Positions 619 through 50,312 of a DNA stretch of 50,996 bases are shown here, piece by piece. The notes below the pieces were generated by a model. That model was not told where the DNA came from. It ran no database searches and saw nothing but the letters and a program-made list of their open reading frames with translations. Each line of letters opens with the position of its first letter. Within the stretch, counting starts at the first letter, position 1. This DNA is from a virus (lineage: Duplodnaviria; Caudoviricetes). Both the position numbers and the translations under genes were made by a program. The stretch covers positions 1 to 50,996 of the IMG/VR virus record IMGVR_UViG_3300027743_000036. The stretch is one strand, 5' to 3'.

Positions 619-645
619 GACCCCATGATTGCGGGGAACTATAGA
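619..645 (+). promoter_or_regulatory. 27-bp element GACCCCATGATTGCGGGGAACTATAGA (copy 1), candidate phage-specific promoter/operator
   Basis: Exact match to reverse complement of 43538-43564; both copies are intergenic and sense to the downstream genes. Confidence 0.65.
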
Positions 646-2992: not shown

Positions 2993-3435
2993 TGCTCCAG
3001 ATCCCCCGCGTACCAACTGTGCGTCCAATCTTCCCCGGTGTAGCTGCGCATCAACTCCGTCAGGAGCTTGCGATGGAGATTAGGGCGACGTGCGAGGCCC
3101 TGATTAAGAGCACCTACGTCCCCTCATACCAAGAAATGTTTCGCAGGTACACTATGGCGGTAGACCCCGGCGAGATCCGCGATCCGTGCCGCCTGCCGCC
3201 GTATGCCACCCAAGGCCCAAACGACGCCCGCGGGGTCAGTAAGATCGGGTGCGTCTATGCCCGGCTGTCCTGGGTGCTCAAGCTATATTGGGATCTATGT
3301 CTTGACGGCGCGGACAATGCCGCGGCACTCCGGCAGTATCTCACTGGGTTGCGAGCCGTGGCGGAGCGGGGAGTTGAGAAGTGCGTTATGGAGGGGGATA
3401 CTCGCATGGGGTTTTGGCTTGGGGTTCCGGCATAA
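2989..3435 (+). CDS. Hypothetical protein
   Basis: Coupled to neighbours at both ends. Confidence 0.6.
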   Translation: MMLQIPRVPTVRPIFPGVAAHQLRQELAMEIRATCEALIKSTYVPSYQEMFRRYTMAVDPGEIRDPCRLPPYATQGPNDARGVSKIGCVYARLSWVLKLYWDLCLDGADNAAALRQYLTGLRAVAERGVEKCVMEGDTRMGFWLGVPA

Positions 3436-5492
3436 TGGAACAGTGGCAAAATATACTTGAGTCTGCGGGATTTCCCACTGAAGCGATTGTTTTGGATTGG
3501 GAGACCTACTTCGATGCCGAATACAGCTTCGATAAGCTATCGACTGTCGAATACGTGATGTCCCCGCGGTTCGAGGTCACGGGGTTGGGGTATCGGCTGC
3601 TTGGCACGGAATCAGAGGCCGGAGGCTTTCTTGACCCGATAGAGGCTCGGCGATATTTGGATACCGCCGCGGGGTGTATCGACAGCTATACAGTGGTAGG
3701 CCAAAATCTGCCGTTCGACGCCCTTGTCCTACGCGAACGATACGGCATCACGCCGAAGTACACCGTGGATATTATCGACCTCGCGCGACATCTGGACGCC
3801 CGCGACCAGCACAACTTGGAACATCTGGCTAAAAAGTATCATGCTCCAACGGAGAAGGGCAATACGCTACAGTTTAAGGGATTACATTGGCAGACTATGA
3901 CCCCAGAACAGCGTGCCGCCCTCTCCTCCTACTGTTTGAATGATGTCGCTATCGAGACGTATCTGTTTAAGACTCTGTTACCCCGGATAACGTGGCCCGA
4001 AGTTGAGCTACGCTTAGCGGCCCAGGCGCTTCGGCAGTATCTCGTCCCGCAAATCAAGATAGACGCCGATCTCGGCAACCGCCTCTTGGTGAGCATGACG
4101 GCCAAGCTGCAAGAGCCCGTAGACCATTGCAATGAGCTTGGCATCCGGGTAGTGACACCAGGTAAACTCACCAAGAGGATCTGCAAGCCGCCCACGGTCA
4201 AGGCCGTCACCGTGGGCGACATCAGCAAGGACGGTACATTTCTTACCCTACTTGCGGCGGCTCTACCTCCTGGCGAGTCAATCCCCATGAAGCAGGGCAA
4301 GAGACGGCTCATCCCCGCTCTCGCTAAGACTGATACTCAACTCGACTACCTCCTCCTTCATCCTTCTCCTCAAGTTCGGGCCTTAATGACGGCGCGTAAA
4401 GAGTCCGACAGTTGGCCCGGACATATCAGCCGCGTGCGGCAGTTACTCGTGCAGTCTGCCGCACGCGGAGGATTTATCGGGGCCATGACCCGGTATTATG
4501 CCGCGCATACTGGCCGGTGGGGTGGGTGGGGGAAGACGAATTTTCAGAATTTCGGCGCACGGGATGTAGACGATCTTATCAAGCAGGTAGGACAGATGCT
4601 CACCGCGCCCGAGGGATTCGTGTTCGGCACCGGGGATCTCAGTCAAATCGAGGCCCGTGTAGTGGCGTGGTTCGCCGGGCAAGAGGATTTGTTGGAGGCG
4701 TTTCGCCGCGTCGATGCAGCAAAGGAACGGGGTGATGATTCGGTGAAGGATGTCTATTGTGAGTTCGCCGAGGAACAGATCTATCACAAGGAAACACGCA
4801 AGCCCCGCAAGGATGATCCACCGGAATTGGCGGCGGCTCTTACAACCCGGCGTAACGTCGGCAAGGAAACCATCCTCGGGGCCGGGTTTGGAATGGGTGG
4901 GTCTACGTTCTATGACCGCTGCCGCCAAAAGCCGAGCCTCAAGGCCGCATTTGAGTCTGGGGAACTTAACCGCCCCCTGTGCAATCGGGCCATTGCCGTC
5001 TATCGCCAGCGATATTCGATGATCCCAAAATTCTGGAAAGAAGTCGAGGCGGCGTGGCGATTCGTCGCTAGATACTACGACCAGCGAGCTACGGTGAGTC
5101 ACTATGGGCGGAGCCTGTCGTTCCGGAATGAGGGCGGCACGGTGGTTGTACAGTTGCCGTCAAGCCGGTGTTTGTTCTATTCCCACGCCCGCGCCGCAGC
5201 GAGTGGTGAGTGCCGGTATCGCTGGGGAAAAGTATATGGCGGGTCGATCACGGAGAACGTCGTCCAGGCCACAGCGAGGGATGTATTCGCGCTCGGGCTG
5301 CTGCGGTTGGAGGACGCGGGGCATAACGTATTGTTCAGCGTACACGACCAAGGGATCAACCTGTATCGTGACAACGCCACGGCAAAGACCGAGCTTGAGG
5401 ACATGCATTGCCTCCAAACTGTTTGTCCAGTGTGGGCCGAGGGCTTGCCTGTAGCAGTGGAAGGCGACTTGACACCAGTGTACCACAAATGA
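3435..5492 (+). CDS. polA: Family A DNA polymerase with 3'-5' exonuclease domain
   Basis: Exo motifs DWET, QNLPFD, YCLND; HTGRW; motif A DLSQIEAR; motif B RNVGKETILGAGFG; ENVVQA; motif C VHDQ. Confidence 0.92.
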   Translation: MEQWQNILESAGFPTEAIVLDWETYFDAEYSFDKLSTVEYVMSPRFEVTGLGYRLLGTESEAGGFLDPIEARRYLDTAAGCIDSYTVVGQNLPFDALVLRERYGITPKYTVDIIDLARHLDARDQHNLEHLAKKYHAPTEKGNTLQFKGLHWQTMTPEQRAALSSYCLNDVAIETYLFKTLLPRITWPEVELRLAAQALRQYLVPQIKIDADLGNRLLVSMTAKLQEPVDHCNELGIRVVTPGKLTKRICKPPTVKAVTVGDISKDGTFLTLLAAALPPGESIPMKQGKRRLIPALAKTDTQLDYLLLHPSPQVRALMTARKESDSWPGHISRVRQLLVQSAARGGFIGAMTRYYAAHTGRWGGWGKTNFQNFGARDVDDLIKQVGQMLTAPEGFVFGTGDLSQIEARVVAWFAGQEDLLEAFRRVDAAKERGDDSVKDVYCEFAEEQIYHKETRKPRKDDPPELAAALTTRRNVGKETILGAGFGMGGSTFYDRCRQKPSLKAAFESGELNRPLCNRAIAVYRQRYSMIPKFWKEVEAAWRFVARYYDQRATVSHYGRSLSFRNEGGTVVVQLPSSRCLFYSHARAAASGECRYRWGKVYGGSITENVVQATARDVFALGLLRLEDAGHNVLFSVHDQGINLYRDNATAKTELEDMHCLQTVCPVWAEGLPVAVEGDLTPVYHK

Positions 5493-30401: not shown

Positions 30402-31667
30402 CTATGTCTCGTATGTAACAATTCCGCGCTGAATGTACGTAATCCGCGGTCCTGAGCCGGACTTCATTACCCCTAAACGTTTCGGCCCGAGCCGCCCGTC
30501 GATAGCGTAGGCGGCGGGCAAGTCCACGGTAAGGAACTTCTCCGTGAAGCCACGCTTGACATCGGTGAACTCAAGCTCCGCCTGCATCAAACAGGCCGAC
30601 ACGATAGCGAAGTCAAACTGTAATCCCGCCGGGTGCGAGCCCTCGGGCTCGACGTAGTACACGCTGCTCGCCGCCGGGTCTGTCCCGCCCGCCGACCCGT
30701 TCGCGTAGAGCCAGTCGGCCACGGTGAACACGCCGGTCGCCCCGGCATAATCGGTAACAACGGCATAACTGGTCTTGCCGGTGCCGCTCATAATCCGGAT
30801 TGTGTCACCGTTGAAATAATCGTCCGCGTACAGGCCGATGATGCCGGTATCGGTGAGACTCGTCGCTCCGCCGCCCGTGGCCGTGCCCGCAATCAGGGTC
30901 AACTTGTCGAAATTCGCCCGGTAAGGGAACACCACCGTATGTTCGTCCGTAGGCGAGGGGTCTACGATCAACTCCCATCGGCGGTTTGCCGTATTGTACG
31001 GGAGCACCGCCGCCCGGAACGGGGCGTCACCCGTCAGGACTGAGACTTCGCGGCTGTGCCGTATGTCGCCTTCGCTCGTCCACTCGACGCCGCAAGCATT
31101 TGAGTCGGCGGTGAAAGTGATGTCGCCCGTGACCTCGCCTTGAAAGTCTTGCGACAGTAAATATCGGGCCGGGTCGGAGTCGATGACCTGTGTACTACGA
31201 CATACGCGGTATTCGCTGGTTGTATCCGGCGTACTTCCACCGGACAGGGCGGTAAAGAGGAACTGCCCGGAGGCTCCGACGTAATCGGTGACGGTTGCGT
31301 ATTCGTCCTCTCCGGTTCCGGCGGTGATCCGCAGGACGTATCCATTAAAGTAGTCATTCGCATAATCCCCTGCGAGGCCGCTGTCCGTCAAACTCGTCGC
31401 GGCACCCGCCGTCGCCGTGCCCTCATAGGCGCGAACGAGATTTACCTCCATGAGCCGGTTGCGCCATTTCCAGCCGCCGACCGGGGCATGTGCTATGAAG
31501 TCCCGTACCGCGGCATTGACGGTGCGCAGGCATCGGTCGAGGTCGTGCGCATCTGTCGGTATCTGCGCGGCCTCGCTCCCAGTCGTGCCGTAGCTGGCTA
31601 TCTCCGCTGCTTTAGCAACTTCAAGGATTAAATCGTAGCAACTTAGCGCGCTGGTTACTTCGGCCAT
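30402..31667 (-). CDS. Head-tail adaptor-like protein with duplicated inserted domain
   Basis: N-terminal helical part + WKW; two GTAT...TSLTD...DYFNG...TG....VTDY repeats. Confidence 0.6.
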   Translation of the reverse strand: MAEVTSALSCYDLILEVAKAAEIASYGTTGSEAAQIPTDAHDLDRCLRTVNAAVRDFIAHAPVGGWKWRNRLMEVNLVRAYEGTATAGAATSLTDSGLAGDYANDYFNGYVLRITAGTGEDEYATVTDYVGASGQFLFTALSGGSTPDTTSEYRVCRSTQVIDSDPARYLLSQDFQGEVTGDITFTADSNACGVEWTSEGDIRHSREVSVLTGDAPFRAAVLPYNTANRRWELIVDPSPTDEHTVVFPYRANFDKLTLIAGTATGGGATSLTDTGIIGLYADDYFNGDTIRIMSGTGKTSYAVVTDYAGATGVFTVADWLYANGSAGGTDPAASSVYYVEPEGSHPAGLQFDFAIVSACLMQAELEFTDVKRGFTEKFLTVDLPAAYAIDGRLGPKRLGVMKSGSGPRITYIQRGIVTYET

Positions 31668-31955: not shown

Positions 31956-32894
31956 TTATGCATCGGCGACCAATGCAGTTGCCGTGCCCGCGAGGATGTA
32001 ATACGTCACCCCGCCAACCGAGATCGGGATTTTGATAGCCGTTCCGTCGGCGTCGAATCCCAACACATGTGCAGCCTCCACCGTGGCCGCGGTGATACCC
32101 AGATCCGCCGCCGTGGGGACCTTCAAGAAATTGGTAAACCCAGTGTTTGCCCCGGTCTCTGACACCCAGATCACAGCGTCCACGGGACCCGCGATACTGT
32201 TGTTCGTGTTCTGGATACGGATACCAAACTCCGTTTCAGCAACCGCTGCCTCGTTGGTCAGGATGATGTCGAGCCCGCCAAAGGTGCCGGATGCGCCCAT
32301 TGTGCCGTAGTTCTCGGCCCTGAGAGTCAGGGCCTTGACGTTCGTAGCGGTCCCCTCGTCGTTTTTCGTGCCTATGAAACTCTCGATGCTGCCAAGAGTC
32401 CCATCATTGCTCGTATTGATGTTGAGACCTCTAAAGACATACCCGGCCACGGTCTGCACGGCGTCATTGCCGCCAGAAATCTTTAGGATGCCGCCGTAGG
32501 CGTCACCCGAGGCAACCACATCCTTGCTGCCCTCAAAATGCACCAGGTACTCCTGCGCCCCGGCAACACCCGTGAAAAAGTTGTCGCCGACTACCTGGAA
32601 ACCATAGGACCGGCCAGTGTTTTCCGCGAAGGGGGCAAACTCCCGCGTGCTGGTGGAGTTGAAATCGCACGACAGCGCGGTGCCCTCATTGACAAATAAC
32701 ACTTCGCCCGCACCGCCATCGACATGTTGAAAGAGACAACCGGGCGCATACCCGGCTGTTGCATCTGTCGGAACGGTTGTACCGTAGGCGTGGGTCCACC
32801 CATCTTCGGTCGCGTGCTGACAACGCGCGGTTGCAATACCAGCGGGGGCGGGAATATCCTTCATGCGCTCAAGTTTCGCGTATGCACTTCCCAT
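31956..32894 (-). CDS. Putative head fibre/decoration protein
   Basis: GT.VP......Y..G.L...DG......VN.GT N-terminal motif; beta-helix-like body. Confidence 0.5.
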   Translation of the reverse strand: MGSAYAKLERMKDIPAPAGIATARCQHATEDGWTHAYGTTVPTDATAGYAPGCLFQHVDGGAGEVLFVNEGTALSCDFNSTSTREFAPFAENTGRSYGFQVVGDNFFTGVAGAQEYLVHFEGSKDVVASGDAYGGILKISGGNDAVQTVAGYVFRGLNINTSNDGTLGSIESFIGTKNDEGTATNVKALTLRAENYGTMGASGTFGGLDIILTNEAAVAETEFGIRIQNTNNSIAGPVDAVIWVSETGANTGFTNFLKVPTAADLGITAATVEAAHVLGFDADGTAIKIPISVGGVTYYILAGTATALVADA

Positions 32895-34831: not shown

Positions 34832-35884
34832 TTATGGAGAACCGAACACCTTTTTGAGTTCGGCTCCTACCTCTTGTACGGCTTGTTCATGGTTGTACGC
34901 ACCCGCGGCTGGGGCCGGGGTTCTGCTCCCGCTCGGCTTTAGCGTCACGCCCGCCGCCCGTTTCTGGACAGACTTCACGATCCGCTGCCGGACCACCTGT
35001 TCCACCATCGGCGCGGCGACTTCCAGATGCGCCCGCTCCAGAGCTTCCGCGGCACTCATTTTCATCCCTGTGGCTTCCGCCCCATCGAGGATCAACTGCG
35101 CCCGATTACACGTCTCCCGGCGATTGGCGACCTGACCCCCGGTCAGATGGGTCCAATCCCCCGCCTGGCCCGCCTTGCCGTAGAAATCCTCATACGGCTT
35201 CATATCATCCGCCCCGAAAAACGTGTTGATGGTCTGGCGGACGGCGATCTCCTCGTCAATGGATCGCTCGGGCGGCTGCTGCTGCACCGGCTGGACCGCA
35301 GGCCGCGGTGCCGGAGCATCGGGGATAAGCTCCCCGATCAAGTCGATAATCGGGTCATCCTCGTACTTCTCCTTAAGCTTCTTCATCACCGCCTCCTTGC
35401 GGCTCGGCTGCACTGGCGTAACCGGGGCGGGTTCCTTCAATCGCCGGGCCTGTTGACCCAATTCGCCAAGCTGCTTCGAGGAGGCGTTGACCATCTCATA
35501 GCACTTGGCAAGGGCCTTGAGGGCGAGTTCCGGGGACTGGTCATACAACTCGCCAATCTCCTCGGCCTTCATGCCCATGTGCACCGCTGCACGATAGTGA
35601 CTGTCGGGGATCGCCGGTTTATCGTCTGCCGGGGACTCTTCCGTTTTCGCCGGGGTAGATTCAACTTCTTCCTCTGCCGGTTTCTCTGCTAAAGTCTCGA
35701 CCACAACCGGAGTTTCCTTCTCCACTGGGTCGGACTTTGTGGGAGTTACCAGGGTAGAGGGAGTTTCCTCTGCCGGTTTCTGTTCGGGAGTCGCCGGGGT
35801 AGCACTTACCGAGGTCAATCCGCCATCAAAGTCAATCGCGTCAATCGCGGTTTTCAGTTCAGCCACAGCTTTCTCATCACCCAT
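34832..35884 (-). CDS. Capsid scaffolding protein
   Basis: Acidic Pro/Glu-rich N-terminus, helical; directly upstream of capsid. Confidence 0.7.
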   Translation of the reverse strand: MGDEKAVAELKTAIDAIDFDGGLTSVSATPATPEQKPAEETPSTLVTPTKSDPVEKETPVVVETLAEKPAEEEVESTPAKTEESPADDKPAIPDSHYRAAVHMGMKAEEIGELYDQSPELALKALAKCYEMVNASSKQLGELGQQARRLKEPAPVTPVQPSRKEAVMKKLKEKYEDDPIIDLIGELIPDAPAPRPAVQPVQQQPPERSIDEEIAVRQTINTFFGADDMKPYEDFYGKAGQAGDWTHLTGGQVANRRETCNRAQLILDGAEATGMKMSAAEALERAHLEVAAPMVEQVVRQRIVKSVQKRAAGVTLKPSGSRTPAPAAGAYNHEQAVQEVGAELKKVFGSP

Positions 35885-43537: not shown

Positions 43538-43564
43538 TCTATAGTTCCCCGCAATCATGGGGTC
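43538..43564 (-). promoter_or_regulatory. 27-bp element (copy 2), candidate late promoter
   Basis: Identical to 619-645; upstream of structured late leader. Confidence 0.65.
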
Positions 43565-43762
43565 CGGAGGTCAGATTTATGGCCTGTTTTGGTGGATTTT
43601 TTACAATTTTTTGTGTGGGTGTTGTAAGTGGTTGATATACCGGGGGTTATGGATAGCGGAGTGAGTTTGTCGGGTATTGGGAATTTTAGGTGTGGCGCGG
43701 GGGTCCCGGGTACGGGGGGCCCAAGGCGGAAATACCCCAGCAAGGGTGGTACCGCGGGGGGT

Positions 43763-43861
43763 CGCGCGCGCACGCACGCGCACGCGCACGCGCACGCGCA
43801 CGCGCACGCGCACGCGCACGCGCACGCGCACGCGCACGCGCACGCGCACGCGCGCACGCGC
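43763..43861. repeat. (CACGCG)13 tandem repeat within ~99-bp perfect purine/pyrimidine alternation
   Basis: Read directly; tandem units at 43775-43852. Confidence 0.95.
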
Positions 43862-43970: not shown

Positions 43971-43999
43971 TTGACAATCGCAAGCTCCTGTGGTAGACT
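43971..43999 (+). promoter_or_regulatory. sigma70-like early promoter PE1
   Basis: TTGACA-17 nt-TAGACT with extended TG. Confidence 0.8.
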
Positions 44000-44069
44000 G
44001 TGCATAGTGCTGGCAAGCATGGGACGCCGGGTTGTAGAGGCAACATTAACCCTATTGAGGAGATAGAAC

Positions 44070-44150
44070 ATGAAACGGGTAGCGCAAGCGATCATCGGCG
44101 GTATAGTGTTTATCGCGGCAATTGAACTAATCATTCGGTGCATGCCTTAA
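44070..44150 (+). CDS. Small hydrophobic peptide (26 aa)
   Basis: GAGGAG RBS; MKRVAQAIIGGIVFIAAIELIIRCMP. Confidence 0.5.
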   Translation: MKRVAQAIIGGIVFIAAIELIIRCMP

Positions 44151-44391: not shown

Positions 44392-44621
44392 GCCCCAATA
44401 TCGGGGCGGAAGGAGACAATATGACTACAGAATATCGGCACCATCCAAACACGGGCGAATATCAGGCGCGCGATAAATGCCGACATTGTGACACCATAAT
44501 TAATCGCTGGCACCGATGTAGCAAAGTGCCGCGACTATGTTTGGTGGAACGTACACGAGCCTGTCCAAAATGTGGCAAGGAATCAGGAGTGCGGGCATAC
44601 TATTGAGCCCCAATATCGGGG
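44387..44621 (+). repeat. 20-bp direct repeats ATTGAGCCCCAATATCGGGG (44387-44406, 44602-44621)
   Basis: Exact copies, each containing the TGA stop of the preceding ORF. Confidence 0.9.
44421..44606 (+). CDS. Small Zn-ribbon early protein
   Basis: AAGGAG RBS; CRHC...CPKCG. Confidence 0.65.
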   Translation: MTTEYRHHPNTGEYQARDKCRHCDTIINRWHRCSKVPRLCLVERTRACPKCGKESGVRAYY

Positions 44622-44630
44622 GACGGTATC

Positions 44631-44653
44631 AGGCCGGTCGATCCGGCCTTTTT
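44631..44653 (+). terminator. Rho-independent terminator of PE1 unit
   Basis: AGGCCGG-TCGAT-CCGGCCT-TTTT. Confidence 0.75.
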
Positions 44654-45135
44654 CGTGCGCGTGCGGTGCTTTTTGTGCGCGTGCGCGCCCGGAAATGGGC
44701 GCGGACTGCCATTTTGGCAGGTTTTTGAGGCTATTTACCACGATATTAGCGCCGTCCAAGCTTCCATCCTGCAAACCCCGACCGCAACAGCCTACTCAGG
44801 GCTTGAAAAACACCGTTTTTGCTTTAATACTATACTTCTTCCCTATCTTCCCCCTCTTTCAGAGAAAAAAGAAGAAGAAATAGACTCCTATACCTTTTTG
44901 TGTAGCTTATATAGTATAAGTATAGCTTAACACAGTATTAGATTCTCAGGTACGCACTAAGTGCCATTATGGAAATCGTAATTTACCCCATTCTTATTCA
45001 AGTGTTTTGTGCGTATTTCCCACAAGAAACATACGCCAGTGCGGTTTTTCGTGCCCTACCCTGCCCCCAAGTCGAGGCAAAAACACGCACTATATCTCCT
45101 TATAAAGATTTCGATAGAGAAAAAATAGATTTATA

Positions 45136-45164
45136 TTGACACGTTATCAGTGCGTAGGTATACT
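45136..45164 (+). promoter_or_regulatory. sigma70-like early promoter PE2
   Basis: TTGACA-17 nt-TATACT, A-rich UP-like region. Confidence 0.8.
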
Positions 45165-45183
45165 ATATGCAAAAGGAGACACA

Positions 45184-45859: not shown

Positions 45860-45888
45860 TTGACACGCCGTAAATCATAGTGTAAAGT
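45860..45888 (+). promoter_or_regulatory. sigma70-like early promoter PE3
   Basis: TTGACA-17 nt-TAAAGT preceded by two A-tracts. Confidence 0.75.
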
Positions 45889-45935
45889 ATAGATGTAAGC
45901 TGGCAAGCTAAAACCCTAAATGAGGAGATCAGACA

Positions 45936-46094
45936 ATGGGAAAGAACATGAAACACGCTCTGGCGTTCGTCCGTAAGTATCCAGGCTGGCATAGCTATGA
46001 TAGGCGCAGCCGGTGTACCGTACTGGCGATTCGCCGTCTGGCTGCGCGCGGACTTGTGGAAATGACCGGTTATCAATTCAGGGCCACGACATAA
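45936..46094 (+). CDS. Small winged-helix-like early protein (52 aa)
   Basis: GAGGAG RBS; ...AIRRLAARGLVE...; not in ORF track. Confidence 0.6.
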   Translation: MGKNMKHALAFVRKYPGWHSYDRRSRCTVLAIRRLAARGLVEMTGYQFRATT

Positions 46095-46179
46095 CCCCCG
46101 GACTACGGGCCACGACCGCGTGACCCGTCCCCGGCGATTATGCCGCAAGCCCCTACGGGGCAGAAAGCAGGGTGAAAGC

Positions 46180-47223: not shown

Positions 47224-47532
47224 ATGAGCACGGTAATGATAACCGCGACACTTGAGGCTCTGAATAGCCGCCGCGATATTTACGGCAAGCGGTGTGCTTT
47301 ACGATTTACCGACCATGCTACCGGCAAGGTAGTTTGCGGCACGGTATCGGGCGGAGAATCGAACATCTACGGTGTATTGCGGCACTGGAACACCCCGGAC
47401 GATTGGGACCGTTCTATTAGGTTTGAACAGCACGAACTACCGATATGCGAGTTTAACCGGCTTGTCAAAGATTGGGCATACGCCGGATATCAGTCTGAGG
47501 ATCTGGCAAAGTTTATCCGTGACCGGCTGTAG
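47224..47532 (+). CDS. Hypothetical early protein
   Basis: GGGAGGT RBS. Confidence 0.65.
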   Translation: MSTVMITATLEALNSRRDIYGKRCALRFTDHATGKVVCGTVSGGESNIYGVLRHWNTPDDWDRSIRFEQHELPICEFNRLVKDWAYAGYQSEDLAKFIRDRL

Positions 47533-47541
47533 AGCACTTAA

Positions 47542-47637
47542 CCCGGCGGGCGCACGTCACGCCCTGCATAGGGTGTCTGATGTCTCCTCACATAGCTTGC
47601 CAGCATTGTTAGGCACATCACCGACACGCCCGCCGGG
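47542..47637 (+). ncRNA. Putative structured antisense RNA (C4/CI-like)
   Basis: 11-bp closing stem, side hairpin, apical arm complementary to PE3 and PE1 leaders. Confidence 0.6.
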
Positions 47638-47643
47638 ATTTAT

Positions 47644-47687
47644 GCCCCGACAGCAGCCGCCCGGAGCAAGACCGGGCCGGGGCTTTT
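47644..47687 (+). terminator. Stem-loop + T-tract directly after the putative antisense RNA
   Basis: GCCCCG...CCCGG-AGCAAGA-CCGGG...CGGGGC-TTTT. Confidence 0.5.
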
Positions 47688-47731
47688 GTGACCGGCAAGT
47701 GAATTCGAACAGCGATTGAAAGGGATGGAAA

Positions 47732-48076
47732 ATGAAGCGTGGATATCAGGAATTTCATCTGACAACGGGCGAGGTTATTTCGGTCCCTACAGACCTGGAT
47801 GGTGAATCGTTTGAGTGGCTCGGACAGTGCAGCTATGAGGAGCTTGGCCTGAAAGATGTTGACGATGACAGCGTCAATATTAAGTGCCTCAATGCTAGGG
47901 GGGATGACGTGGCACGTCAAGTTGAAATGCTCTACGACGCCGAGGAGTCCGCTCCCGATGCGACTGAAAAGGATGAGGAACAAGGGATCGACCCTATCGG
48001 AGAAATCTGGGCGGCTTTCTGTGATGCCACGGACTCCGCAGATTTCGCGCGGCGATTGGCTGAACTCAACCATTAG
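47732..48076 (+). CDS. Acidic early protein
   Basis: Very Asp/Glu-rich, 114 aa; AAAGGG RBS. Confidence 0.65.
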   Translation: MKRGYQEFHLTTGEVISVPTDLDGESFEWLGQCSYEELGLKDVDDDSVNIKCLNARGDDVARQVEMLYDAEESAPDATEKDEEQGIDPIGEIWAAFCDATDSADFARRLAELNH

Positions 48077-48765: not shown

Positions 48766-49352
48766 TCTCGATACCAAAGGTAGAACCGGCAGTGAAGCTC
48801 CCCGCGAAAATCGCCCGGCTGCTAAAATCGGCCACATACCCCCCGCACGGTAGTCACCTGCGTGACGCAGCTGTTTGCATCCAGTGTGTCTATGCCGACG
48901 AGCAAGGCACTCTGGTAGCTACAGACGGCAAGCGGATGGTCATTGTACATAGGCAAACTGCAATGTCCCCCGGCCTGTGGAGACCACAGACCGGGCGCAC
49001 CTTTATCCGCGACCATGCAACAGAGGCGACAGTGAGGGAGGCCCGCGGCAAGCGGGGCCTGTTTGTGGAGTGGCGCGACTATGTGACCGCGCCCTATGAG
49101 TACCAGCCGGAGGAGACGTTGGTATCATACAGCACTCTATCGACTGCGATTCAGGGGGCTTGCGTCAGAGCGCGCGCCTACATAGACTGGGTGCTGTTTG
49201 CCGATACCGTGCGGGCCATAGAGGACATATACTGCGATGAGATCAGGGTGAAGTGCCCGGTCGATAACACGCGACCAACAATGGTCGAAATGTATAAGGG
49301 CAAGGCTGTATTCGTCCAGGCCATCTTTATGCCGTACAACGGAGACAGATAG
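48762..49352 (+). CDS. Hypothetical protein with beta-clamp-like motifs
   Basis: LVATDGKRM and C-terminal AIFMP. Confidence 0.5.
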   Translation: MISIPKVEPAVKLPAKIARLLKSATYPPHGSHLRDAAVCIQCVYADEQGTLVATDGKRMVIVHRQTAMSPGLWRPQTGRTFIRDHATEATVREARGKRGLFVEWRDYVTAPYEYQPEETLVSYSTLSTAIQGACVRARAYIDWVLFADTVRAIEDIYCDEIRVKCPVDNTRPTMVEMYKGKAVFVQAIFMPYNGDR

Positions 49353-49365
49353 TCTCCGATTTCGC

Positions 49366-49393
49366 TTGACTTCTTCCTCGCATGTGGTATACT
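49366..49393 (+). promoter_or_regulatory. sigma70-like rightward promoter at 3' end of integrase gene
   Basis: TTGACT-16 nt-TATACT with extended TG. Confidence 0.7.
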
Positions 49394-49395
49394 AT

Positions 49396-50202
49396 TTAGG
49401 TAGCGAAACCCTCTGTCTGGCCGATGAGATCTACCGGGAGCAAATGACAATAGACCTGCTCCGTGATTGCCAGCGAGCTATGCCCCAATATCTTACTGAT
49501 TACCTTTGCGGGCCTGCCCGCTTTAAACATCCGAGTAGTCCAAAAATGTCTTAGGGCATGGGGGCCGAACGCGGCGATACCGCAACGTACCGCCAGCCGC
49601 CCGCATAGGCGGTCCATCGCGCTCGGCGTCCCATACCTCTTGAGAAAGCGCAGTGTGTCTTGATCGTGGTTGCGTGTCAAAATATCCCTCGCTATGCTAT
49701 CCAGCGGAACGGTGCGGGGTTTACGCCCCTTACCACACGGGACTCGAACCGACAGCATATCGGGGGCAATGTCCTTCCATCGCAACCGCAACAGTTCCCC
49801 CCGGCGAACGCCGGTATGGGCAAAGAATTGGATCACGTCTTTTTCCATCGGCTCGCAGACCGCCAGCACGCGGGCATACTCCTCCTCAGTGAGCACCCGC
49901 TGCTCAGGATCATTGGGGGCCAGCGCGGGCACCTGTGCGGCCAGGTTGGGCAAACCATGTCGCTCGTGCTGCCACGTCCAGAACGATTTGAGCGCGGCCA
50001 GATGCGAGTTGGTGGTGTTACGGCACCGCTCGATCAGCAGCACATCTATGTATTGCTCGATGTGCAGGACTGTGACCTGTGGCAAGGGCGGGCTTTGCGT
50101 AAACGCGGCAAACCGCATCAGAATGCGTCTGTATTGATCGACCGTGTACGGGCTATAGTTTCGCCTGCAATAAATAAGCCACTCTGCTACTGCATTTTTC
50201 AT
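49396..50202 (-). CDS. int: Tyrosine recombinase/integrase (XerC/D-like)
   Basis: TGVRRGEL (R), GKGRK (K), HALRH, LGHSS, VY; N-terminal core-binding domain. Confidence 0.92.
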   Translation of the reverse strand: MKNAVAEWLIYCRRNYSPYTVDQYRRILMRFAAFTQSPPLPQVTVLHIEQYIDVLLIERCRNTTNSHLAALKSFWTWQHERHGLPNLAAQVPALAPNDPEQRVLTEEEYARVLAVCEPMEKDVIQFFAHTGVRRGELLRLRWKDIAPDMLSVRVPCGKGRKPRTVPLDSIARDILTRNHDQDTLRFLKRYGTPSAMDRLCGRLAVRCGIAAFGPHALRHFWTTRMFKAGRPAKVISKILGHSSLAITEQVYCHLLPVDLIGQTEGFAT

Positions 50203-50312
50203 ACCGCACCTTTTTCGTATCATCGGCCGAAGAGGATGGCGGGTTTACGAAAAACTCTATACGTCGAAAGTATGGCGCACCCGCGCGGTCCGCCTGGCCA
50301 TAATCAGCAGAT

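Follow-up and report, generated by a model that had tools for sequence, protein, structure and literature searches.

To our knowledge, few phage RNAs control the early programme of their own phage in trans; C4 and CI are the main examples, and all come from cultured enterobacterial elements. Here we describe a candidate for such a role in IMGVR_UViG_3300027743_000036, a complete IMG/VR virus record of 50,996 bp that was analysed at full length and is called the window. The element is a clamped RNA fold at 47542-47637 on the plus strand, with an interior complementary to early leaders of the window phage, and homologous folds were found in two related uncultured phages, G002 and G003. We consider it slightly better than an even chance that these folds would represent a new small family of operon-embedded phage antisense RNAs acting on early leaders. 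The traits shared by its members are an RNA of 80-96 nt, a GC clamp of 11-12 bp, the sense strand and a place inside the early region. The clamp RNA reads as working like C4 and CI, not as a member of either.

In phage P1, c4 sits ahead of the genes repressed by it, and P1 also has the C1 protein repressor. The RNAs sar and OOP are transcribed opposite their targets and are fully complementary to them. In Staphylococcus aureus, an anti-Shine-Dalgarno (anti-SD) element in the 3' untranslated region (UTR) of icaR pairs with its own 5' UTR, and small RNAs derived from 3' UTRs occur in enterobacteria. The sources used here describe C4 of P1/P7 as a structured operon RNA with short complements, probably exposed in loops, near the ribosome-binding site (RBS) and with specificity variants that bring about heteroimmunity (PMC12197685, PMC8546580, PMC8198154), and as cut from a precursor by RNase P (PMC11143913). 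The account of P4 CI has it processed from a transcript under its own control and pairing with seqA and seqC, with targets both up- and downstream of it; CI is the immunity factor, and premature termination prevents the expression of the replication genes (PMC4825925). The small antisense RNAs sar of P22 and OOP of lambda cover or destabilise the message of a regulatory gene, and a table in one review lists OOP as cis and sar as trans (PMC12197685).

The clamp RNA resembles C4 as a small structured RNA in the same operon and on the same strand as its target, with short complementary segments near the RBS, and processing from a precursor is the probable route for the window RNA too. It differs from C4 in matching no Rfam model, in lying downstream of its targets and in that two of the three phages carrying it have no integrase. 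C4 targets an internal site ahead of icd/ant, whereas the sites matched here are the 5' ends and Shine-Dalgarno (SD) sequences of two promoter-proximal leaders; P1 has its C1 repressor protein, whereas none is recognisable here by the HTH_3 and S24 searches. With P4 CI the clamp RNA shares two separate complementary sites, with which it would pair, and a probable origin in the controlled transcript, but it has no sequence or model similarity to CI. The P4 targets flank CI, whereas both targets here lie upstream, at message 5' ends and on two transcripts. CI acts by transcription termination; here, with the SD covered in two of the three phages, one would think first of a translation block. The position ahead of or between the targets that marks C4 and CI was not found, since the fold lies 1.7-2.8 kb downstream of the nearer leader. 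Unlike sar and OOP, the clamp RNA lies on the strand of its target at a distance of 1.7-3.6 kb, and the match is made up of short blocks. As in icaR and the enterobacterial 3' UTR RNAs, an anti-SD element that can pair with a leader stands 3'-terminal in an operon message; those are cellular genes, whereas the clamp RNA has a conserved clamp scaffold and a second target on a separate transcript.

Rfam returned no family at gathering score for the whole window. The Rfam C4 family, which we take to be RF01695, gave no match in 47300-47900 (cut-off E<=10) or in the loci of G002 and G003 (cut-off E<=1), and membership in the C4/CI family, the point on which the initial annotation had suggested an Infernal search, was not borne out. 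The best Rfam alignment was to the Betaproteobacteria toxic small RNA RF02278 (16.3 bits, where the gathering score is 50; E 1.3), and this membership was rejected as a chance-level score; what RF02278 has in common with the window fold is an anti-SD string UGUCUCCUC followed by a terminator hairpin. The clamp of 11-12 bp has the length of a stacked acceptor plus T stem, the one hint of a 5' end cut by RNase P as in C4, and no conserved CCA follows it. A description of the element was not found in the literature searched, in which papers are not searchable by sequence.

The features of the window to which the following paragraphs refer are given below, with the promoter names PE1, PE2 and PE3 kept from the initial annotation.

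43971..43999 (+): PE1, promoter-like site TTGACA-17-TAGACT, 10 of 12 consensus positions, with TG
44008..44018 (+): 5' box TGCTGGCAAGC of the PE1 leader, beginning 9 nt past the -10 hexamer
44056..44072 (+): SD TGAGGAGA of PE1 (44056-63), then ATG 44070 of a 26-aa open reading frame (ORF) without internal stops
44411..44418 (+): RBS AGGAGACA of gene 44421-44606, an 8-nt complement of 47581-88, weak alone
45136..45181 (+): PE2, promoter-like site (45136-45164) with a short leader and RBS AGGAGACA (45174-81), no 5' box
45860..45888 (+): PE3, promoter-like site TTGACA-17-TAAAGT, 10 of 12 consensus positions
45899..45938 (+): PE3 leader with box GCTGGCAAGCTA (45899-910), SD TGAGGAGA (45921-28), TCAGACA (45929-35) and ATG 45936
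47224..47532 (+): upstream gene, 102 aa, no known family, TAG stop 9 nt before the fold
47542..47637 (+): clamped fold, 96 nt, with an 11-bp GC clamp, side hairpin 1 and an irregular apical hairpin
47644..47687 (+): intrinsic-terminator-like hairpin GCCCCG...CGGGGC (47644-47683), then TTTTGT, in the window phage only

The interior of the fold was complementary to the PE3 leader in three colinear blocks of 12+8+7 bp, which correspond to the 5' box, the SD and the bases up to the ATG. The anti-box TAGCTTGCCAGC (47593-604), the anti-SD TCTCCTCA (47583-90) and the anti-start TGTCTGA (47574-80) are exact complements of GCTGGCAAGCTA (45899-910), TGAGGAGA (45921-28) and TCAGACA (45929-35), respectively. 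The PE1 leader also has an 11-nt box, TGCTGGCAAGC, and an SD, TGAGGAGA, that are complementary to the apex of the fold, and RNAduplex extended the box pairing to AUAGUGCUGGCAAGC with two G.U pairs. The 10-mer GCTGGCAAGC was found in exactly three copies on both strands of the 50,996 bp, two of them behind promoters at 44009 (+) and 45899 (+) and the third inverted in the fold at 47595. Among 12,742 windows of 31 nt from both strands, the fold window was the best non-self partner of the PE3 leader, with a duplex score of -37.2 at the offset sampled by the scan and -41.8 at the exact one; the background had a mean of -13.3 and a standard deviation of 3.7, and the next best partner scored -35.7. 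The two longest same-strand words in the genome that are complementary to the fold interior are the two leader boxes, and the same was observed in G002. The PE1 duplex, with an energy of -29.7 for the 31-nt segment, ranked about 12th and is unremarkable.

The fold itself is closed by the clamp, in which CCCGGCGGGCG (47542-47552) pairs with CGCCCGCCGGG (47627-47637). Side hairpin 1 (47559-76) is formed by 7 bp between ACGCCCT (47559-65) and AGGGTGT (47570-76), and the irregular apical hairpin (47578-47620) by the arm TGATGT (47578-83) with ACATCA (47615-20). Clamp, side hairpin and arm were all present in both the minimum-energy and the centroid fold. The 96-nt fold had an energy of -50.7 kcal/mol (z -5.73), reached by none of 200 shuffles, and together with the terminator -77.9 kcal/mol (z -4.57). 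The terminator was missed by a simple terminator scan, its loop being long. A promoter scan found no plus strand promoter-like site between PE3 and the fold, which fits a co-transcription with the PE3 operon. The fold elements of the initial annotation, a closing stem, a side hairpin, an arm and a hairpin with a T-tract, were all recovered where it had placed them, and so were its 27-bp match to PE3 in three colinear blocks, exactly, and its PE1 boxes TGCTGGCAAGC (44008-18) and TGAGGAGA (44056-63). Its 8-nt RBS matches at 44411 and 45174 are present just before start codons, but alone they are at chance level.

Relatives were found by their large terminase at 65-85% identity, and the whole records of three were read, of which G002 and G003 are rated 100% complete and G004 88%; the fold loci of G002 and G003 are labelled L157 and L159. 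In G002 (49,058 bp) the exact box stands at 30529 (+) and 32811 (+), each 7-9 nt past a TTGAC-17-TATACT site, and an inverted box copy at 35641 lies inside a homologous 90-nt fold (35590-35679) with the same clamp and side hairpin. In G003 (51,217 bp) a different box, GTCGAACGAAC, stands at 49293 (+) and 1380 (+), each time behind a consensus promoter, and its complement at 3439, with 10-11 nt exact and one mismatch, lies inside an 81-nt fold (3413-3493) with the same clamp. The box class is GCTGGCAAGC in the window and G002 and GTCGAACGA in both leaders of G003, and the matches to the two leaders are 11 and 12 nt long in the window, 12 and 15 nt in G002 and 11 and 10 nt in G003. The distance from the -10 hexamer to the start of the box is 7-10 nt in each of the six leaders, which places the box at the predicted 5' end of the message. 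All three folds are intergenic, on the sense strand and inside the early plus strand array, and the nearer target leader is 1.7 kb upstream in the window, 2.8 kb in G002 and 2.1 kb in G003. Their z-scores are -5.73, -5.15 and -4.62, with no shuffle as good among 200 for each. The folds of G002 and G003 are internal to their operons, with the next gene directly 3' and no terminator hairpin after the fold. The genes flanking the folds are non-homologous among the three phages, which indicates that the RNA travels with the promoters and not with a gene.

An unguided RNAalifold of the three sequences recovered the clamp and hairpin 1. Standard pairs were formed in 52 of 52 cells, and three of the seven pairs of hairpin 1 had changes on both sides. 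The RNA strand is, as read from the pairs, the plus strand, because three G.U pairs would be A.C on the opposite strand; model R1, trained on the three sequences, scored 105 bits on the plus strand against 23 bits on the minus strand. The RNA and its putative leader targets co-vary, as far as three phages can tell. Between the window and G002 the box is kept and the leader RBS differs, UGAGGAGA against AGGGUGAAACC and GAGGGUGAAGC, and the RNA segment beside the anti-box changes to match, from UCUCCUCA in the window to GGUUUCGCCCU in G002. In G002, RNAduplex gave 12+11 bp with the Pa leader, where GGUUUCGCCCU/AGGGUGAAACC account for 11 bp, and the 15-bp box match with the Pb leader. G003 differs from the window and G002 in the box itself, which has been exchanged in the RNA as well as in both leaders. 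The extended pairings have two positions (window PE1) and three positions (G002) that depart from Watson-Crick pairing, and by eye all five were G.U-compatible, which points to a selection at the RNA level.

These comparisons bear on several claims of the initial annotation. Compensatory changes between RNA and target, which it had proposed to look for in relatives, were found for the anti-SD in G002 and for the box in G003. A decayed inverted copy of the leader that is not conserved, which it had named as a possible undoing of its proposal, does not agree with the fold and leader match kept in G002 and G003. The C4/CI-like architecture, with the RNA on the sense strand within the operon, was found in all three phages, intergenic in the early plus strand array and with G.U pairs that fit the plus strand only; the two separate box matches known from C4 and CI have their counterpart in the box that both leaders carry in each of the three genomes. 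For the proposed undescribed antisense RNA family that silences early operons, the scaffold and the leader match are kept in the relatives, whereas the silencing itself we only infer.

Besides these results, a few features of the same loci were observed. Each genome has one short and one long boxed leader, and the long one contains a GC-rich hairpin between box and SD (window 44019-44055, G002 32821-32860, G003 1391-1420). The motif AAYAACCGATAGA is conserved 5-6 nt 5' of the clamp in G002 (L157:15567-15589) and in G003 (L159:3393-3412), where it is non-coding, and its window counterpart is ACCGGCTGTAGAG (47522-47541); a processing signal is one possible role, a weak -10 element that lacks a -35 another. 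An own promoter for the fold was rejected, as no -35 element accompanies the conserved TAGA that stands 5-6 nt 5' of the clamp. An attP or tRNA-like site was also rejected, the fold being 1.7 kb from int and present in phages without int, and so was a coding region, as the gaps between the homologous folds are not multiples of three. The RBS context AGGGTGAAAGCA-ATG recurs in the window at 46165, 46838 and 48474, and both G002 leaders have it as their SD. In all three RNAs hairpin 1 has a 5' arm (GCCCU) complementary to this context, and it may hold a second, masked anti-SD.

In the antisense RNA model, the RNA would be made within an early operon transcript, which in the window is that of the PE3 operon ending at the terminator 47644-87. 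The clamp-protected core would be released by cleavage or trimming, and in the window the terminator would define the 3' end. The interior of the RNA would then pair with messages from two strong early promoters of the sigma-70 type, at their extreme 5' end (about +1 to +15) and, in the window and G002, also at the RBS of the first cistron. Translation initiation would be blocked by this duplex, or else the message would be cleaved or terminated prematurely. With rising levels of the RNA the early operons would be turned down, by negative feedback or as an early shut-off. In a lysogen of the integrase-bearing window phage the RNA might damp incoming or resident early transcription. The production of the RNA, its processing, the pairing in vivo and the effect on expression are all predicted in this way from the sequences of the three phages.

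A number of observations weigh against this model. Being downstream of its own target, the RNA would limit its own synthesis. Model R1 had no match in 50 related records searched at full length, of which 11 are at least 90% complete, and G004 (88% complete) was without the fold, so that the fold is dispensable for the phage group. The family has three members, two of them with a common box, so that box and anti-SD have each switched independently just once. Ten of the eleven clamp pairs are invariant, and the clamp is therefore backed by stability and conservation, not by covariation; the covariation shuffle control with the three sequences was modest, as 30 of 500 shuffles matched the observed values. 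In G003 the box match has one A.C mismatch and the anti-SD complementarity covers only 4-5 nt. The RNAduplex energies do not separate cognate from non-cognate pairs, and the G003 RNA gave -47.2 with PE1 of the window against -27.4 and -31.2 with its own leaders. The interior of the G003 RNA also has complements of 14 nt (4317-4330) and 10 nt (3605-3614) inside downstream ORFs of the same operon, of which the 14-nt match is longer than the G003 leader matches; they may be chance words or further targets. Both box types are imperfectly palindromic, a common trait of protein operators. A look-up of sequencing runs found the window sequence in one DNA run, which may be its source, and in no RNA run.

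The distribution of the element was followed with several searches. Model R1 found only its training sequences in 94 sources of 1.39 Mb in total, and with the filters off nothing credible in five close relatives (best 14.3 bits, E 1.7). A first exact-pattern scan of viral contigs had 0 matches, and a further one gave 23 stretches of which only G002 was real. A scan for the box followed by GAGGAGA gave at least 118 stretches; among 80 loci scored by script a promoter before the box was found in 0 and an inverted copy in one (L061), and these hits were judged as chance. The clamp-arm scan gave 45 stretches with the fold only in G002 and G003, and the rest were set aside by eye as GC-rich and coding-like. 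Kinship by tblastx was absent for 43 of 44 clamp-arm loci, by a weak filter that missed the short G003 locus too, and the loci L205, L207, L213 and L218 contain anti-SD-like strings. A search with a protein of the PE3 operon found only G003, and blastn against cultured phages and plasmids had no match. The conserved phosphoesterase has 85% and 48% identity in the carriers, and 70-75% in some non-carriers. The cassette is rare and patchy.

The 102-aa gene upstream of the fold (47224-47532) was also used for a search and found G001, 18 metagenome loci and one contig of a metagenome-assembled genome (MAG) at 43-63% identity. By blastn the fold was present in none of them, and their downstream spacers are unrelated. 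This set was rejected as relatives, G001 sharing only that gene with the window phage, and was left out of all later counts. Phage contigs that are otherwise unrelated share this gene, which has an SGGESNIYG motif; one of them is AT-rich and was binned with a Patescibacteria MAG. The one leader of G004 has a 10-nt complement within coding sequence, which was judged as chance. The relative L237 (3326-3800) has twin TTGACACGCC...TATACT promoters whose leaders have CTACACAGTGG and a covarying hairpin in common; neither a clamp RNA nor a leader complement of at least 10 nt was found there, and L237 may have a different way of co-regulating two early operons.

The near-palindromic nature of the boxes could also be explained by a phage or host protein that binds them as DNA operators at both promoters and at a third distal site, maybe with looping, the fold then being incidental. 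Both box types (GCTGGCAAGC; TCGAACGA) are imperfect palindromes that overlap the predicted transcription start, and each genome has exactly three copies. Such an operator leaves unexplained, however, why a conserved clamp and hairpin 1 surround the third copy, why this copy is inverted in all three genomes, why the complementarity reaches into the RBS and co-varies in G002, and why all five departures are G.U-compatible; in addition, no DNA-binding domain was detected in the early genes tested. We regard the operator as unlikely, if worth keeping in mind. A pairing in cis only, in which the fold contacts the 5' leader of its own transcript and sets translation or stability with no free small RNA, agrees with the predicted transcripts, as the fold and the leader of PE3, G002 Pb or G003 Pb share one with no promoter-like site between them. 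The window fold stands at the 3' end of its transcript just before the terminator, and the 3' UTR anti-SD of S. aureus icaR is a precedent. But in all three phages a second boxed leader is on a separate, earlier-terminated transcript, with a terminator-like site at 44631-49 in the case of PE1, where the box would be useful only in trans, and the folds of G002 and G003 are operon-internal and not 3'-terminal. A purely cis-acting element appears improbable to us.

The fold might instead be a relic, either an inverted partial leader copy or a palindromic insertion element with 11-bp terminal inverted repeats and a captured leader. Its apical reverse complement reads like a leader, with box, SD and an ATG 13 nt later, the clamp arms are sequence-conserved inverted repeats like the ends of miniature mobile elements, and the distribution among the relatives is patchy. 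A relic would not keep matching the leaders of its own genome after a change of box and SD, though, nor would compensatory changes be expected in hairpin 1, and the fold occurs as a single copy per genome at a constant place relative to the promoters. This explanation has very little probability in our view.

The initial annotation had gone further and suggested a candidate RNA-only immunity switch. Spelled out, the RNA as the sole prophage repressor would silence the early operons in lysogens and confer superinfection immunity as P4 CI does. It had described the phage as integrase-bearing and as having no CI/LexA-like gene. The integrase was confirmed as a tyrosine integrase of 275 aa at 49396-50223 (-), and six-frame searches for two families found neither HTH_3 nor S24 domains in any of the three genomes. 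No early ORF that was tested has a known family, and two box types would be expected of heteroimmune classes, such as those of P1/P7 that one review traces to c4 (PMC12197685). Against the immunity switch, the integrase (PF00589) is present in one of four genomes only and is missing from G002 and G003, both 100% complete, and from G004 as well. As two of the three carriers are without integrase, a link to lysogenic immunity is not general. These phages also have their own DNA polymerase, primase and helicase, which do not exclude lysogeny but give no sign of it. A full repression would stop the supply of the RNA itself, which lies downstream of a target leader, and small orphan proteins outside the two repressor families searched could repress, for example the 52-aa product of the first PE3 gene, for which an Atlas look-up returned only unnamed viral clusters without function. 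The part of the suggestion that stood is the integrase together with the absence of HTH_3 and S24; the part that suffered is the general role, because of the one integrase in four genomes and the place of the RNA downstream of its targets. We hold the RNA-only switch to be quite unlikely. The position downstream of the targets fits a self-limiting feedback or an early shut-off better than a stable immunity switch or latch. A wider version would see the twin boxed promoters and the clamp RNA as a portable protein-free cassette that is the only early repressor, with the classes GCTGGCAAGC and GTCGAACGA mutually non-immune and, in the window, an RNA-only prophage immunity unrelated to C4/CI by sequence; this too appears improbable.

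The genome around the element has a large terminase with less than 30% identity to that of any cultured phage. The replication module on the plus strand encodes DNA polymerase, primase, helicase, an exonuclease, a Sak4-like protein and a methyltransferase; a long structural block including the large terminase is on the minus strand. Between these modules, small plus strand genes form an array that begins at about 43.9 kb and runs to the end of the record, and none of the early-array genes that were scanned had a Pfam or PHROG family. Perfect TTGACA-17-TAnnnT sites occur only three times in the genome, at 43971, 45136 and 45860, and all of them head the early array. The integrase gene looks like an inserted cassette, because it is absent from G002, G003 and G004 and is flanked by promoter-like sites at 49366 (+) and 50341 (-).

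Some further features of the early region were observed. Between the terminator of the PE1 operon (44631-49) and PE2, about 480 bp (44650-45135) are rich in AT and lack a convincing ORF, and this stretch might be an origin; the lowest GC bin of the genome is 44-46 kb, with 0.496. A tandem repeat (CGCGCA) x 14.8 at 43765-43853 lies just 5' of PE1, and the non-coding stretch 43643-43819 around it is among the few non-coding parts kept in relatives. An identical 27-nt element, of which 22 nt were re-checked and for which no occurrence is expected by chance, was found at 619-645 (+) and 43538-43564 (-). One copy is oriented into the plus strand replication genes and the other into the minus strand structural operon, and the element could be a shared middle/late promoter or activator site.

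If the antisense RNA model is true, environmental phages would have invented the C4/CI logic independently, on another scaffold and with another target geometry: the very 5' end of the message on two separate operons and, in two of the three phages, the RBS too. The three consensus promoters should work in E. coli, so that the idea can be tested without knowing the host, and the differing specificity boxes among the relatives would offer a natural pair for swap experiments on the specificity of an RNA-based immunity or shut-off. Comparing an intergenic fold with the promoter-proximal leaders of the same phage can reveal regulators that are outside the family databases.

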